Origin: an uncultured Gammaproteobacteria bacterium
GTDB lineage: Bacteria > Patescibacteriota > Patescibacteriia > Patescibacteriales > Patescibacteriaceae
Length of the DNA stretch: 64,000 bases
Direction of reading: 5' to 3'
Assembly (NCBI GenBank): GCA_964487795.1
Contig: CAZASI010000002.1
Location: 180,349-244,348, forward strand
Under the pieces are notes generated by a model that was not told where the DNA came from, did no database searches, and saw only the letters and a program-made list of their open reading frames with translations. Shown here in pieces: positions 2,404 to 29,227 of this stretch (position 1 is its first letter; each line of letters opens with the position of its first letter). The position numbers were made by a program, and so were the translations under genes.

Positions 2404-3645
2404 ATGTTTCGAAACGCAAAAATAAAAACCATTTTTATCACTCTTACACTGGCGGCTGCTTCGGCCGCTCTTGTGGTTTCTATCCAAATTGCGCAAGCGG
2501 CCACAACTCCGAATATTAGTTCGGATATTCAGGATTTAAACAATACAATTGAACAGAAGAAAAAACAGTTAAACGATTTAAAAGCTAAACAGGAAGCTTA
2601 TCGTAAGGCCCTGGAGGAAAAACAAAACGAAAAAGCCAGTTTACAAAATCAGATTGCTATTGTAAGTAGCCGCATGTCTGAGGCTGAGCTTAAGCTTGAT
2701 CAAGTTCAGGTCGATATTGAAACTACGAATCTTGAAATACAAAAGATCGGTTTGGAAATAGCAGAAAATGATCAATCAATCGCACAGAATAAAAGTCGCC
2801 TAACCACCGCCATTAAATTATTAAGTCAAGAAGGACATAAATCGCAACTTGAGATTTTGTTACTTAATAACTACCTGACTGAGTACATGAATCAACTGCA
2901 ATACCTTCAGGATATTAACGGAAAGATTTCAGAAGGCTTGAATGATTTAAAGGTAGCAAAACTTGGGTTAGATGAAAGTAAAACTAAACTTGAAGTCAAC
3001 AAAGAAAAATTGCGCGACTTGCGTCAGGATCTTGAACAAAATAAAGTACAACTTGCTTCCGAACGTGACACTAAGAATTATATTCTTGATGAAACAAAAT
3101 CTTCTGAAGCTGAGTACCAACGCCTACTAGCTTCTGCTCGACGCGAGCAACAATCCGCATCAGCTGATATCGTTTCTTTAGAGAAGAGCATGCGTGATAA
3201 AATCAATAAACAAGGTGGAGATAAAGTCGCTTTGAAATATGATGGATTTATTTGGCCCGTACCAAAAAACACCATTACCGCATTTTTCCGAGATCCATCA
3301 TATCCGTTCCGATATATTTTTGAACATGCCGCTGTCGATATCCGCGCCAGTCAATCAACGCCAATCCGAGCAGCCGCTTCCGGTTATATCGGTCGCGCCA
3401 AAAACGGTGGAATGGGTTACAGCTACATTATGATTGTTCATGCTGACGGTTTGGCTACGGTCTACGGACACGTTTCAAAAATTTATGTGAAAGAAGATGA
3501 ATATGTAAGTCAGGGACAAATTATTGGTTTGTCAGGAGCAATGCCCGGAACCCCAGGTGCAGGCCCACTTACCACAGGCCCTCATTTGCACTTTGAAGTG
3601 CGTCTTAATGGAATTCCCGTTAATCCGGTAGAATACTTGCCCTAA
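2404..3645 (+). CDS. M23 family metallopeptidase with N-terminal signal anchor and long coiled coil (EnvC-like architecture)
   Basis: C-terminal LytM motifs HAAVDI...GHVSKIYVKEDEYVSQGQIIG...GPHLHFEVRLNGIPVNP. The N-terminal ~250 aa are heptad-like and Q/E/K rich. Confidence 0.9.
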   Translation: MFRNAKIKTIFITLTLAAASAALVVSIQIAQAATTPNISSDIQDLNNTIEQKKKQLNDLKAKQEAYRKALEEKQNEKASLQNQIAIVSSRMSEAELKLDQVQVDIETTNLEIQKIGLEIAENDQSIAQNKSRLTTAIKLLSQEGHKSQLEILLLNNYLTEYMNQLQYLQDINGKISEGLNDLKVAKLGLDESKTKLEVNKEKLRDLRQDLEQNKVQLASERDTKNYILDETKSSEAEYQRLLASARREQQSASADIVSLEKSMRDKINKQGGDKVALKYDGFIWPVPKNTITAFFRDPSYPFRYIFEHAAVDIRASQSTPIRAAASGYIGRAKNGGMGYSYIMIVHADGLATVYGHVSKIYVKEDEYVSQGQIIGLSGAMPGTPGAGPLTTGPHLHFEVRLNGIPVNPVEYLP

Positions 3646-6950: not shown

Positions 6951-6971
6951 AAAATAGGCACATTTCTGCGC

Positions 6972-7166
6972 CTATAAATCATATACTTCTCCGTCAGTCA
7001 AAATAATTTTTCTGTCCTTACCTTTTTTCATTATTGGAGTATCATCATTTTTACCTGCCCAATTATGGAAAGTCCAGCCTTCTTTAGCGAGCTTTTCTCT
7101 GCTTATACGAGTGGCTTCAGACTGATTATTATGAGTTTCGGGGTTGACCATTATTGATCTTACCAT
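6972..7166 (-). CDS. Small hypothetical protein (64 aa)
   Basis: ORF only. A hairpin at 6954-6975 with a T-run on the minus strand overlaps its stop codon. Confidence 0.35.
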   Translation of the reverse strand: MVRSIMVNPETHNNQSEATRISREKLAKEGWTFHNWAGKNDDTPIMKKGKDRKIILTDGEVYDL

Positions 7167-7235
7167 TATATTTTATTTTTGTTTGAAAATAACTTTTCTA
7201 TAATATAACATATCATTATAATTTTGTCAATATAC

Positions 7236-7263
7236 AAAAATGAGCCCGCAAAGGCTCATTTTT
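7236..7263. terminator. Bidirectional intrinsic terminator
   Basis: AAAAA-TGAGCC-cgcaaa-GGCTCA-TTTTT. Lies downstream of the minus-strand gene 7284-7493. Confidence 0.6.
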
Positions 7264-7283
7264 AATTGAAAAATTAAGCTTGG

Positions 7284-7493
7284 TTATTTATTTTTCTTCA
7301 CTTCCTTAGCTGTCAAAGAAGCTAAATCAGAAATATCATCTTTTAATTCAACAAGAAGCTTTAAAATATCTTTGAACTTTCTTTTTATTTTAGGATCGGC
7401 TGTTTTAAGCAGGGGAGCGAGCTTAGAGGCTGCGGCGCCGAGCACTGTTAAAAGTCCAATTACTTTGATTATGTTGCCGAGTTTTTTAGCCAT
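7284..7493 (-). CDS. Small membrane-anchored protein (69 aa, possibly YtxH-like)
   Basis: N-terminal hydrophobic IKVIGLLTVLGAAASKLAPLL followed by a charged helix. A terminator lies downstream. Confidence 0.45.
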   Translation of the reverse strand: MAKKLGNIIKVIGLLTVLGAAASKLAPLLKTADPKIKRKFKDILKLLVELKDDISDLASLTAKEVKKNK

Positions 7494-7514
7494 AGTGGTT
7501 GTTTAATAATTAAC

Positions 7515-7544
7515 ACTGACAGTATAGCATATTCTATGATATAA
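7515..7544 (+). promoter_or_regulatory. Sigma-70-like promoter for the DUF305 gene
   Basis: CTGACA (7515-7520), 18 nt, TATAAT (7539-7544). Confidence 0.45.
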
Positions 7545-7576
7545 TATGAGAAAGAAATTAATTCAAATAAAAACAT

Positions 7577-26295: not shown

Positions 26296-28086
26296 TTATT
26301 TAAGAATAGCCTTAATGCGTCTAATTCCGGCTGATGAGCTCTCTTCTTTGCTTATCTCAAAAGTTCCTAATTCTCGAGTATTTTCAACATGAGGACCACC
26401 GCAGATTTCCTTACTAAAATAGTTTGGCTCCTCGCCAACAAAATACACCTTCACCATCTGTTCATACTTAGAATCAAAGATTCCCGTCGCCCCAATCTCA
26501 CGAGCTTTTTCGAGCTCCATTTCCTCATAATGAACAGGAAGCTCCGCTTGAATCGCATCGTTCACAATATCCTCTACCTTCTTAATTTGTTCATCAGTCA
26601 TTTTCTCAGGATGCGGAAAATCTAAACGAAGACGTTCTCCGGTGATATTACTGCCTTTTTGGTAGATATGTTCTCCCAACACCTTTTTTAAAGCTGCAAG
26701 CAGTAAGTGAGTTGCTGTGTGTAACTTTGTAGTTTCTACGCTGTGATCAGCCAGTCCCCCTTTGAATTTACCTGCTGAGGCAGTTCGAGACAAAGCTTGA
26801 TGCTTTTCCAACTCTTCATAAAAACCTTTTTCATCAACTTGAACATCTTTTTCTTTAGCGAGTTCAATAGTCATTTCAATCGGGAAACCATAGCTTTGGT
26901 ACAAATCAAAGGCCTCAATTCCGCTGATTGTGTCCCCTAACTTAACAAACTCTTTCTCGCCCTTTTCTAAAGTGGTTTGAAATTTCGCTTCTTCTTTATT
27001 TAACTGATCAATTATAAAAGCTTTATTATTTTTAAGTTCCGGATATACTCCTGAATAATGTGAAATGTATATCTCTGAAATTAAATGTGTCCACTCTGTT
27101 GAAGAAATTCCGAGTTGACGTCCGAAACGAATGGCGCGGCGAATTAAACGACGAACAATATAACCCTGGTCAGTATTGGCAGGTCCAATCCCTTTTTCGT
27201 CACCCATGATAAAAGTCGCTGCCTTTAAGTGATCCGCAATAATTTCAAAGGGCCGCGAAACATCGGAATACTTTTTGCCTGACAATTCTTCAATCTTTAG
27301 AATCGCGTCATTAAATAGATCGGTTTCAAAAATATTTGGTTTGTCTTGAGTAACCATACAAAGTCTTTCAAGTCCTCCACCAAAGTCAACGTTCTTATTA
27401 TTCAGTTCCTTCCAACCATTTTCAGTTTTCTGGTATTGCATAAATACTGAATTGCCGATTTCAATATATTTTCCGCAATCACAGTTAATATGACATTCTG
27501 CTCCGAATTTTGTGTCATGCACTTTACCGGTATCATAAAACGTTTCAGAGTCCGGCCCGCCTAATTCTCCAATTGCATCGCCTCTCTGCCACCAGTTTTT
27601 TTCAATATATTCGAAGATCCGGTTCTCGTCATGAACGCCGTATTTATTAAAAATTTGTTTTACAATTTCTATGGACTCAGTATCTTTAGGAATCTGACCG
27701 TCCTTTGAGCCAGCATAAACACTTTGATATAAACGTTTTGGATCAAGCTTTAACTCATCGATCAAAAACTCATACCACCAGTTTAATTGTTCTGATTTCC
27801 AATAATCGCCCAAAGACCAGTTGCCGAGCATTTCAAAAAAGGTGTTATGACGATTATCACCAACTTCATCAATATCTTCAGTACGAAAAGATTTTTGGCT
27901 GTTCACGAGTTTATCACCGGCCGGATGCTTTGCTCCCAATAAATAAGGAACCAAAGGAAACATTCCAGAGTTTACAAATAACAGGGTTGAGTCATTTTCC
28001 GGTAGCAAAGAAGCACTCGGGATACGTACATGTCCCCTCTCTTCGAAAAATGTTAGATATTTTTTCCTAATTTCTGTTGACTTCAT
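26296..28086 (-). CDS. alaS: Alanine--tRNA ligase, short form (catalytic, tRNA-recognition and editing domains; no C-Ala domain)
   Basis: MKSTEIRKKYLTFFEERGH..IPSASL...FFEMLGNWS; editing motifs HTATHLL and CGGPHV. Ends at 596 aa. Confidence 0.95.
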   Translation of the reverse strand: MKSTEIRKKYLTFFEERGHVRIPSASLLPENDSTLLFVNSGMFPLVPYLLGAKHPAGDKLVNSQKSFRTEDIDEVGDNRHNTFFEMLGNWSLGDYWKSEQLNWWYEFLIDELKLDPKRLYQSVYAGSKDGQIPKDTESIEIVKQIFNKYGVHDENRIFEYIEKNWWQRGDAIGELGGPDSETFYDTGKVHDTKFGAECHINCDCGKYIEIGNSVFMQYQKTENGWKELNNKNVDFGGGLERLCMVTQDKPNIFETDLFNDAILKIEELSGKKYSDVSRPFEIIADHLKAATFIMGDEKGIGPANTDQGYIVRRLIRRAIRFGRQLGISSTEWTHLISEIYISHYSGVYPELKNNKAFIIDQLNKEEAKFQTTLEKGEKEFVKLGDTISGIEAFDLYQSYGFPIEMTIELAKEKDVQVDEKGFYEELEKHQALSRTASAGKFKGGLADHSVETTKLHTATHLLLAALKKVLGEHIYQKGSNITGERLRLDFPHPEKMTDEQIKKVEDIVNDAIQAELPVHYEEMELEKAREIGATGIFDSKYEQMVKVYFVGEEPNYFSKEICGGPHVENTRELGTFEISKEESSSAGIRRIKAILK

Positions 28087-28091
28087 ATATA

Positions 28092-28123
28092 TTGACTTTA
28101 TCGGTTTTTGCAGATATTATCAA
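28092..28123. promoter_or_regulatory. Overlapping divergent promoters: plus-strand (small ORF) and minus-strand (alaS, near-leaderless)
   Basis: Plus strand: TTGACT (28092-97), 17 nt, TATTAT (28115-20). Minus strand: TTGATA (28123-18), 17 nt, TAAAGT (28100-28095), whose end lies 8 nt before the alaS ATG. Confidence 0.4.
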
Positions 28124-28169
28124 GCCAGTTCAAATTTGAGTAGCTATTTTAAAATATAATAATAAGCCA

Positions 28170-28364
28170 ATGCAATTTAGCTTTATCGATACCCAAGAAA
28201 TATTTAAAAAAGATTCAGCTCCAAACTCATTACTAAAAAGTAAGATGGGAAATGACGTGTTTAGTCAAGATACTGGCCTTCGAGTGCATGTTAATCCAAA
28301 ACTTGGCAGCGCCGAGGAAATAGAGAAACATAAGCCTCAGGGCTTAGAAGATTCTCCTTTTTAG
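28170..28364 (+). CDS. Small hydrophilic hypothetical protein (64 aa); coding status uncertain
   Basis: ORF downstream of the plus-strand promoter. No SD. Internal hairpin TAAGCC-tcag-GGCTTA at 28331-28346. Confidence 0.3.
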   Translation: MQFSFIDTQEIFKKDSAPNSLLKSKMGNDVFSQDTGLRVHVNPKLGSAEEIEKHKPQGLEDSPF

Positions 28365-28379
28365 GCAAATCAGCACATA

Positions 28380-28408
28380 TTGACATTCTTATGTGTTAGC
28401 GATAGTAT
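28380..28408 (+). promoter_or_regulatory. Sigma-70-like promoter of the large structured RNA
   Basis: TTGACA (28380-85), 17 nt, TAGTAT (28403-08). Confidence 0.6.
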
Positions 28409-28414
28409 CAAAAT

Positions 28415-28803
28415 AAGTTCTTATAAGTAGGCAAATATAGATTCCTAGATAGAAGTGACTCTAACGGAGGCTCGTTTAGGATAAATCACGCGTGTCTATA
28501 TTATACGCTTAAGTTGACCATCTAATCTTTTGCATCCAACGGGCCTAACCACATGGTTTATCCTGGCAAATAGCTAAGGTGTATTCATCCTCAACTTTGA
28601 ATAGTCGCGCTTTCGTAAGAACTTGCTTGAACAGGAGCGCTTATCGGTTGATAAGGACTGTTCTTTTCGGGAGAGCGTTAGGGTGTAAATTCCTTAGCGC
28701 CTCCTAATTTAATTAGTTATTTGAAAAAATTGTTTCACCACTCATCCTTCCGCTTGGAGGATTGAGCTCGGAAAACCCTGAGCCAAGATGTTCAGGGTTT
28801 TTT
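28415..28803 (+). ncRNA. Unclassified ~390-nt structured RNA (own promoter and terminator)
   Basis: No ORF of 60 aa or more. Nested long-range helices: 28466-71/28699-704, 28573-79/28692-98, 28478-85/28557-64. Local hairpins: 28490-508, 28640-55, 28617-22/28660-65, 28741-66. Ends in a strong intrinsic terminator. Confidence 0.55.
28772..28803 (+). terminator. Intrinsic terminator of the structured RNA
   Basis: AACCCTGA-8 nt-TTCAGGGTT followed by a T-run (28798-28803). Confidence 0.8.
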
Positions 28804-28809
28804 GCTACC

Positions 28810-28838
28810 TTGACATTAAATGCAAAAATCGATACATT
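28810..28838 (+). promoter_or_regulatory. Sigma-70-like promoter for 28877-29227
   Basis: TTGACA (28810-15), 17 nt, TACATT (28833-38). Shares TTGACATT and a CGATA element with the promoter at 28380. Confidence 0.45.
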
Positions 28839-28876
28839 CAATAATAAACTTTCGTACATTAAAAGGAGACTATAAC

Positions 28877-29227
28877 ATGGTTTGGATAAAAAATATTACC
28901 CCGAAACCCTTTCTCGAACTTTCGAATTTCTCAGGAACTTACGTAACCGTAGAAATATTCAAAAACGGCGACAAACATGAGACACGATTAATTTCAGGCC
29001 AACTAAGTAGCTTTGATGAGAGCAACAAAGAAAATCCAACGTTACTATTTATATCACGTTCAGGCGCATCATTCGTATTGCACGCTAATATGTATGACGG
29101 ACGGGAAAACAAAGAATACTGGTTCTTAAATAGGATGTCAGCTCCTCCGGGACTTGATGATTTTGAAGAAGGCGTTCTTATATACTCCGTAGAGCAGCTT
29201 ATTGCTACTGCCACTCATACTGAATGA
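28877..29227 (+). CDS. Hypothetical protein (116 aa), orphan
   Basis: ATG lies 8 nt after AAGGAG (28863-68). No motif recognised. TGA stop. Confidence 0.6.
   Translation: MVWIKNITPKPFLELSNFSGTYVTVEIFKNGDKHETRLISGQLSSFDESNKENPTLLFISRSGASFVLHANMYDGRENKEYWFLNRMSAPPGLDDFEEGVLIYSVEQLIATATHTE

Follow-up and report, generated by a model that had tools for sequence, protein, structure and literature searches.

The closest described counterparts of the RNA considered here are the long structured 5' leaders of mRNAs, with the small RNAs (sRNAs) derived from leaders or riboswitches, and the large non-coding RNAs (ncRNAs) of the OLE, ROOL, GOLLD, HEARO and raiA families, which span many genera. In Patescibacteria, members of the candidate phyla radiation (CPR), genomes are tiny and, to our knowledge, almost no regulatory RNAs have been characterised. 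Based on the comparison of a 64,000-nucleotide (nt) stretch of patescibacterial DNA (contig CAZASI010000002.1 of assembly GCA_964487795.1, positions 180,349 to 244,348; hereafter the window) with related loci, we describe a predicted RNA that is a structured mRNA leader turned stand-alone RNA gene. It lies between the AlaRS and TGT genes, in the largest gap poor in open reading frames (ORFs) within the densely packed window and, as reconstructed here, consists of the leader element of a neighbouring 64-codon gene (ORF64) plus a 5'-terminal stem (H1) whose loop carries a ~190-nt domain (28425-28614). By homology the window RNA is an ORF64 leader; judged from the gene order, it is no longer a leader here. 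The comparative evidence indicates that it is a real, previously undescribed structured RNA family, very narrowly distributed, in Patescibacteria.

The likeness to long structured leaders and to leader- or riboswitch-derived sRNAs lies in the promoter-proximal position of a structured RNA upstream of a coding sequence, in a conserved hairpin module placed at a constant ~40 nt from the start codon, and in the presence of an ORF-less, terminated version that could act in trans. However, no ligand-type aptamer or ORF-coupled expression platform is visible at this locus, the leader is dispensable in several relatives, its ~310-nt core is very large for a gene of 64 codons, and the ORF-less copy appears to have arisen at the DNA level, with a second copy of the promoter, and not by premature termination. 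With the OLE, ROOL, GOLLD, HEARO and raiA RNAs it shares a length of several hundred nt, many helices, covariation and the co-transcription with unrelated small genes that is often seen there; unlike those families, it was recovered from five near-relatives and is without a match in Rfam, consists for one third of an mRNA-leader element and has domains gained or lost between strains. The first nucleotides (AGUUCUU) lie in a stem in every structured variant, including the minimal hairpin of the related locus L094 (loci of relatives are designated L083 to L100), which recalls ompA-type 5' stabilisers and hok-type long-range closure. Here, however, a structured domain of ~190 nt enlarges the loop of this stem, the ORF64 protein is hydrophilic and not a type I toxin, and no antisense RNA is evident.

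Five distinct full-length versions of the RNA were found, one of them in the window, whose genome recurs identically in two Logan contigs. The four others occupy the same place in L083, L085 and L086, recovered via homologues of the downstream ORF116, and in L099, recovered via the AlaRS cluster. They are 66-89% identical overall, for AlaRS proteins ~89-95% identical to that of the window. The same promoter heads the RNA in L083 and L086, 30-40 nt from the start of AlaRS; ORF64 follows without an intervening terminator, and after it comes the same terminator. An earlier sequence-only reading of the window had called the RNA an orphan; this is refuted by these two genomes, where this RNA constitutes the ORF64 5' leader, and by L087, L094 and L096, where its 3' module is the ORF64 leader element. 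The order in these five genomes is promoter, leader RNA, ORF64, 3' hairpin where present and terminator, and the element thus stands between a P1-type promoter and the ORF64 start. In the window, by contrast, an ORF64 homologous to that of L083 and L086 lies upstream of the RNA; here and in L099 the module is found downstream of ORF64 behind a second promoter copy. ORF64 is absent from L085 and ORF116 from L099.

The connection with ORF64 was also recovered by a covariance model (R2) built solely from the 3' module of the five full RNAs. Its three best matches in 55 kb of sequence from relatives lie exactly upstream of ORF64, in L087 (27.3 bits, E 1.1e-4), L096 (26.0 bits, E 2.3e-4) and L094 (21.4 bits, E 3.7e-3), the score on the window itself (128.7 bits at 28616-28726) being high by construction. 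Across eight sequences the 3' module is 87% paired, with 12 double-sided pairs vs 6.7 in shuffles, in an alignment fitted to the model, and in the sister genomes it sits ~40 nt upstream of an ORF64 start codon that has no Shine-Dalgarno sequence. The ORF64 leaders differ widely in length: they are short and unstructured (~45-55 nt) in L095 and L100 and in the first unit of both the window and L099, and reach ~110-125 nt in L094 and L087, ~250 nt in L096 and ~330 nt in L083 and L086. The L094 leader opens with the H1 stem on a 3-nt loop (AGUUCUU-GAU-AAGAAC), and in that of L096 an analogous stem closes off a different interior of ~165 nt; homology of the window 5' core to this interior, or to a second RNA of L094 described below, was not detectable. 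Downstream, the ORF64 stop codon directly abuts the terminator in L083 and L086, and in L094 and L100 ORF64 is followed by the 3' hairpin and terminator.

ORF64 itself is small, acidic and fast-evolving, and ends in a conserved C-terminus, [ED]D[SY]P[FI], which recalls the C-terminal tail of SSB (DDDIPF). It is under purifying selection, with ratios of non-synonymous to synonymous divergence (pN/pS) of 0.21-0.67, and is thus a real gene. Homologues occur in L083, L086, L087, L094, L095, L099 and L100, and its divergent orientation relative to AlaRS is conserved in the wider clade (L094, L095, L087, L100, L099). Among 5.8 billion proteins, ORF64 forms only ~8 clusters; searching 1.84 billion representatives with a profile returned only ~six small-protein clusters and repeated weak matches inside three giant proteins (2321-4303 amino acids), and it has no Pfam or PHROGs family.

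The RNA is very narrowly distributed. Only one copy was found, confined to one narrow clade, and a further covariance model, R1, detects the 5' core domain in the five genomes only. The full RNA is not at this locus in L087-L096 or L100 (AlaRS 72-86% identical), and neither nhmmer nor R1 and R2 found it at the AlaRS loci of other CPR and bacteria, at least 80 of which were obtained in an AlaRS-anchored scan of 185k species genomes, where the closest among the matches listed is 59% identical. A scan of JGI metagenomes with the conserved promoter pattern recovered an L087-type contig only, and a pattern scan of viral contigs, as well as BLAST against phages and plasmids, gave no match to the RNA. 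An importance on the scale of a housekeeping RNA, as had been implied, is hardly compatible with a presence in only five genomes, an absence at the loci of such near relatives and the deletion or exchange of parts between near-identical strains.

As for the RNA itself, the sequence-only reading was largely correct in what it observed and largely wrong in the architecture that it proposed. The near-consensus promoter (P2), the strong terminator, conserved in all relatives, and the separate promoter of ORF116, also conserved, were all confirmed. The interval is non-coding, with no ORF of at least 60 amino acids within the predicted transcript and no reading frame common to the five homologues. 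It is also structured: the plus strand folds better than its shuffles (z = -3.97; 0/100 as good), the minus strand less well (z = -1.9), and frequent G-U pairs that are valid on the plus strand only identify this strand as the one that would be transcribed. In the RNAalifold structure of the five sequences, 92.5% of cells are paired, and 11 pairs show double-sided changes, against 6.3 +/- 1.5 in shuffles (0/500 reach 11) and 1-2 in slid controls. Among the local hairpins described earlier, those at 28490-508 and 28640-55 were recovered by RNAalifold and are kept in relatives, the second with three compensatory pairs, and the bulged hairpin at 28741-66 recurs in L085, L099, L094 and L100. Three of the four long-range or competing helices of the proposed nested architecture fail the comparative test: GGAGGC/GCCUCC is mismatched in L083 and L085 and has lost its 5' strand in L099, and neither AGGAUAAA/UUUAUCCU (28478-85/28557-64) nor AAGAAC/GUUCUU is maintained in relatives. 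The fourth, GCUAAGG/CCUUAGC, is partly kept, but competes with a better-supported local hairpin (H8) that is backed by compensation in allele B (see below).

The true long-range helices are H1 (28416-24/28615-23) and AAGUUG/CAACUU (28511-16/28592-97). Within the 5' core, a hairpin (28490-94/28504-08) precedes the latter helix, which encloses an arm of three segments (28518-23/28577-82, 28527-32/28566-73 and 28541-45/28555-59). A further variable hairpin, H5, covaries in relatives and is deleted in the window. The 3' module comprises H6 (28625-28/28635-38, loop GAACAG), H7 (28640-45/28650-55), the pairing GACUG/UAGUU (28656-60/28714-18) and H8 (28669-83/28692-705), which, 5' bulge included, folds by itself in each of the seven sequence variants. 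H7 covaries, CUUAUC/GAUAAG in one allele being replaced by AUAGCC/GGCAGU in allele B. Alongside these helices, we observed that the 5' untranslated region (UTR) of ORF64 holds a string, UAGCUAUUU (28141-28149), that is a perfect 9-nt complement of AAAUAGCUA in the long arm of the RNA (28568-28576), and that the same segment AAAUAGCUA can alternatively pair with the tail of the RNA (UAGUUAUUU, 28714-28722). The pairing of UAGCUAUUU with AAAUAGCUA, which is partly kept in L099 and L085, may offer a lead for a cis or trans interaction and is not presented as a finding.

The 3' module occurs as two alleles, A in the window, L083 and L086 (94-99% identical) and B in L085 and L099 (92%). Alleles A and B are ~58% identical, yet H6, H7 and H8 are kept by compensatory changes. 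The alleles are distributed in conflict with the AlaRS tree: L085 and L086, with 85% identity at AlaRS four-fold sites, carry different alleles, and the window and L086, whose four-fold sites are near saturation (45%), share allele A at 95%. Within allele A, the identity of 94-99% compares with 45-72% at AlaRS four-fold sites, and L083 and L086 are 99% identical in the module where the adjacent ORF64 has a synonymous divergence (pS) of 0.21. That the module is so much more conserved than the synonymous sites of ORF64 speaks for constraint rather than for a recent recombination tract alone, even though the locus is clearly mosaic. Constraint on the 5' core is moderate, with 71-88% identity where synonymous sites are near saturation.

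The promoter-proximal leader position seen in five relatives is probably ancestral. In the window and L099 there are two direct promoter copies, the P2 module (28378-28412) aligning to the P1 module (28090-28124) as a diverged direct copy; the P1 unit (28092-28364) keeps ORF64 and a truncated leader, and the P2 unit (28380-28803) has the full leader, the 3' hairpin and the terminator, with no ORF. The window arrangement probably results from a tandem duplication followed by reciprocal deletions. L085 has the RNA without any ORF64, and the RNA with its promoter and terminator therefore persists in three genomes (window, L099, L085) where it no longer precedes ORF64. If transcribed and functional, it would represent an undescribed structured RNA family for Patescibacteria, as well as a natural example of a stand-alone RNA gene derived from an mRNA leader, in which a hairpin loop was expanded, the promoter came to be present in two copies and the ORF was lost from the RNA unit. 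The two compensated alleles of the 3' module constitute a ready natural mutagenesis of its helices, although the very narrow distribution (five genomes) limits the practical weight of the case.

We favour the interpretation, with a probability of about 0.55, that this is a leader-derived regulatory or stabilising RNA of the ORF64 unit. The RNA would be made both from P2 and by read-through from P1, since no terminator lies between ORF64 and P2 in the window. The description of the RNA as independently transcribed thus stands as regards its own promoter and terminator, and not as regards its separation from ORF64, a shared transcript being probable. H1 would bury the 5' end and the terminator hairpins the 3' end, yielding a stable RNA, and the conserved 3' module, especially the bulged-A hairpin H8, would be the putative binding site of a factor controlling ORF64 expression. 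For its part, the ORF-less copy would work in trans, as a decoy for this factor, a scaffold or an RNA with an activity of its own, and not as a classic cis leader; action in trans is probable because three genomes keep promoter, RNA and terminator where a leader role is impossible.

Several observations weigh against this interpretation. The transcript is predicted from DNA sequence alone. ORF64 has no structured leader in L095 and L100, nor in the P1 units of L099 and the window, and its expression therefore does not depend on the leader; the window RNA, downstream of ORF64, cannot gate its translation as a leader. The acidic ORF64 protein is an unlikely RNA binder, and the factor that would bind H8 is hypothetical. 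The covariation statistics are weak, as they come from five full-length sequences, all closely related, in which H1 and AAGUUG/CAACUU never vary. The pace of evolution of the variable region, and for the window vs L083 also of the 5' core (66% identity), is close to that of synonymous sites, and mosaic recombination across the locus could inflate the apparent conservation.

A more speculative proposal, to which we give little credence, is that the RNA belongs to a new class of large modular ncRNA, in which A and B would be structure-equivalent, sequence-divergent 'specificity' alleles exchanged by recombination between CPR strains; it might then serve as an arms-race decoy or as an immunity or addiction RNA, together with ORF64 and its SSB-like tail. 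Swapping of divergent alleles is what an RNA caught up in a recognition arms race, and not an ordinary leader, would be expected to show. A further explanation, in line with the sequence-only reading, is that of a large ncRNA acting autonomously and in trans, perhaps as a catalyst or a protein scaffold, and tied to ORF64 by co-transcription only. We consider it unlikely. In its favour, the RNA carries a promoter and a terminator of its own in the window and L099 and occurs by itself in L085, its 5' core is conserved beyond the synonymous sites, and it is large, multi-helical and without an Rfam match. However, the 3' third of the RNA can be shown to be the leader element of ORF64, relatives with an AlaRS 81-86% identical lack the 5' core, individual genomes have lost big pieces (L099 the variable region, the window H5), and the single copy found is limited to one narrow clade. 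Another possibility is a non-functional relic, that is, a duplicated leader left after the deletion of ORF64 in a recombination-prone island, with hairpins persisting by descent. The AlaRS-TGT interval is indeed a variable island in which genes differ by lineage, the variable region evolves neutrally, leader length ranges from ~45 to ~330 nt and identity is mosaic. Such a relic is nevertheless improbable, for the alleles differ at ~42% of positions and retain H6, H7 and H8 by compensation, the 3' module is almost unchanged between L083 and L086 despite the divergence of the neighbouring ORF64, and three ORF-less configurations have kept the promoter, the RNA and the terminator intact. The locus could also be seen as a mobile or invertible cassette, in which 35-nt inverted repeats delimit a segment moved by a recombinase, the RNA being cargo. 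The inverted repeat is the longest in the region (28/35 complementary), three copies of the promoter module are present and the order of ORF64 and RNA differs between genomes. We regard this as very unlikely: the neighbourhood has no recombinase gene, relatives show no inverted form, no copies were found elsewhere, and the repeats are promoter modules, which explains their similarity. Nor is it easy to maintain that the RNA is a riboswitch or attenuator leader controlling ORF116 through the terminator at 28772-28803, although the layout of structured RNA, terminator and gene is classic and ORF116 co-occurs with the RNA in four of the five genomes. In L083 and L086 a whole gene, ORF64, stands between RNA and terminator, in L099 the terminator is directly followed by the convergent TGT gene with no ORF116, and ORF116 has its own conserved promoter; given that Rfam riboswitches also provide no match, this possibility is slighter still.

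Two last explanations can be set aside almost entirely. The RNA was considered as a highly divergent housekeeping RNA, i.e. RNase P RNA, transfer-messenger RNA (tmRNA), signal recognition particle (SRP) RNA or 6S RNA. The string ACAGGAGCGCUUAUC at 28631-45 resembles the CR-V consensus of RNase P RNA (ACAGAA..GGCUUA). The size and the CPR host would also fit RNase P RNA, as would the invisibility at Rfam gathering thresholds, since CPR forms are hard to detect and can fall below the Rfam cut-offs (PMC8172020). However, no match to RNase P, tmRNA, SRP or 6S models was obtained at E <= 10 in 28100-29000 on both strands, bearing in mind that scores of CPR forms may be very low. GCUUAUC, the CR-V-like string, forms the 5' arm of H7 and covaries, unlike the invariant P4; the 5' end pairs internally, with 28615-23, ~110 nt before the end of the core, with no 5'/3' pairing of the type of helix P1. 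The only match to the P4 5' strand (GAGGAAAGUCC) with at most 3 mismatches inside the RNA is the H8 loop, which is at chance level. The clade-wide presence expected of RNase P is also wanting, as the RNA is missing at the locus in L094, L095, L100 and L087-L093. Finally, sister genomes use the RNA as an mRNA leader, and whole domains of it disappear from one strain to another; an essential ribozyme would show neither behaviour, so it is not RNase P. As regards tmRNA, ARAGORN found no tRNA or tmRNA gene in the window, and there is no tmRNA clan match in 28100-29000. Two tmRNA-like features were rejected: 'AAUAGUCGCG...UAA' is a covarying, deletable hairpin, and AAUAGU(C/A)GCG..., which resembles a resume site of a tag frame, is followed by the covarying H5, which has been deleted from the window, and the frames vary from genome to genome. 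The rejection of these four RNAs in the sequence-only reading is upheld. The Rfam search (cmscan) that it had suggested gave no family: there was no match at the gathering level in the whole 64-kb window or at 10 related loci, and at E <= 10 the interval and these loci returned only terminator-driven noise. An encoded small protein, such as a 42-amino-acid GTG ORF at 28579-28707, is an equally poor explanation for the conservation. Its frame (...STLNS..AFVRTCL.RSAYRLIRTVL..) is open in the three allele-A genomes, but these are 94-99% identical in DNA there, which makes the open frame uninformative. In allele B the frame is shifted by a 2-nt indel and soon stops; no start codon or Shine-Dalgarno sequence is conserved, and the changes are compensatory in helices, not synonymous.

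The features of the locus are collected in Table 1.

Table 1. Features of the AlaRS-ORF116 interval (window coordinates; RNA features as predicted)
Feature	Position	Strand	Remarks
AlaRS	28086 (start codon)	-	596 amino acids; borders the gap on one side
P1, ORF64/leader promoter	28092-28120	+	TTGACT-17-TATTAT; kept in L083, L085, L086, L087, L094, L096, L099, L100
Truncated, unstructured ORF64 leader	28127-28169	+	compared with the L083, L094 and L087 leaders, retains only the AGUUC start and the AU-rich tail (UAGCUAUUUUAAAA...)
ORF64	28170-28364	+	64 codons; homologues in relatives
P2	28380-28408	+	TTGACA-17-TAGTAT; diverged direct copy of P1; heads the ORF-less RNA; same P2 in L099
Whole predicted RNA	28415-28803	+	~389 nt, from probable start to end of terminator T-run
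H1, 5' strand	28416-28424	+	AGUUCUUAU; 5' terminus of transcript; pairs with 28615-23 in 5/5 homologues, 100% of cells
Variable region	28428-28489	+	49-65% identity, about the synonymous-site rate; mostly deleted in L099; holds the GGAGGC and AGGAUAAA strands proposed earlier
5' core domain in H1 loop	28490-28614	+	hairpin, AAGUUG/CAACUU helix and enclosed long arm
3' module (here allele A)	28615-28726	+	H1 3' strand, H6, H7, GACUG/UAGUU, H8, AU-rich tail; conserved ORF64-leader element
H8	28669-28705	+	two-part hairpin with 5'-side bulged A (GGGAG-A-GCGUUAGGG / CCUUAGCGC-CUCCU); compensatory changes
Trailing bulged hairpin	28741-28766	+	usual 3'-UTR hairpin of the ORF64 unit; after ORF64 in L094, L100; after the RNA in L085, L099
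Intrinsic terminator	28772-28803	+	10-bp perfect stem 28772-81/28792-801 and T-run; conserved TTCAGGGTTTTTTG in all relatives
ORF116 promoter region	28809-28843	.	35-nt inverted paralogue of the P1 module 28090-28124, 80% complementary
ORF116	28877-29227	+	strong Shine-Dalgarno; found only in window, L083, L085, L086; TGT next

The AlaRS of the window is 75% identical to proteins labelled Candidatus Falkowbacteria at NCBI, and the host is a member of the Patescibacteria (CPR). P1 is probably the ancestral promoter of ORF64 and its leader. A promoter-like site for AlaRS on the minus strand (TTGATA-17-TAAAGT, 28123-28095) overlaps P1 face-to-face and ends 8 nt before the ATG; AlaRS, of only 596 amino acids, thus seems to be leaderless, and the overlap of the two promoters may account for the strong clade-wide conservation of this 40-nt block. 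A T-box leader of AlaRS on the minus strand was tried and rejected: the G-U pairs fit the plus strand only, the minus-strand fold is poorer, there is no T-box match and AlaRS is apparently leaderless. The promoter module is present three times, as the bidirectional AlaRS/ORF64 module (P1), as P2 in direct orientation and, inverted, in front of ORF116. The first and last copies form the imperfect 35-nt inverted repeat (28090-28124 vs 28809-28843) that brackets the ORF64-RNA unit; in relatives ORF64 and the RNA always lie on the same strand relative to AlaRS.

Only three homologues of ORF116 exist in 5.8 billion proteins, and it has no Pfam, PHROGs or PDB sequence match; its AlphaFold2 model is beta-rich and of low confidence (predicted local distance difference test, pLDDT, 60). 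A by-eye motif had suggested an Sm-like RNA-binding partner, which was discarded, as Pfam and PDB were empty and Foldseek gave only non-significant generic beta-barrels. The antitoxin RNA of a type III toxin-antitoxin system was likewise rejected: there are no tandem repeats in 28050-28900, and ORF116 is not ToxN-like and is absent in L099. The content of the AlaRS-TGT interval differs between lineages, with ORF116 in the window clade, SNase, His_Phos_1 plus SNase, or a 244-amino-acid unknown protein in relatives and nothing in L099, and sequence identity along the locus is mosaic between strains. A second large gap of the window (6951-7576) holds two small minus-strand ORFs and has no RNase P match; a GGAAAGUCC-like string at 7067-7075, considered as a sign of RNase P RNA elsewhere in the window, sits in one small minus-strand ORF and is attributed to chance.

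In L094, a second promoter precedes a different ORF-free RNA of ~250 nt (~3255-3510, minus strand), without an Rfam match, which starts with AGUUCUUUGG, closes with CCAAGAAC and has its own terminator. The locus seems to generate H1-closed structured RNAs repeatedly.

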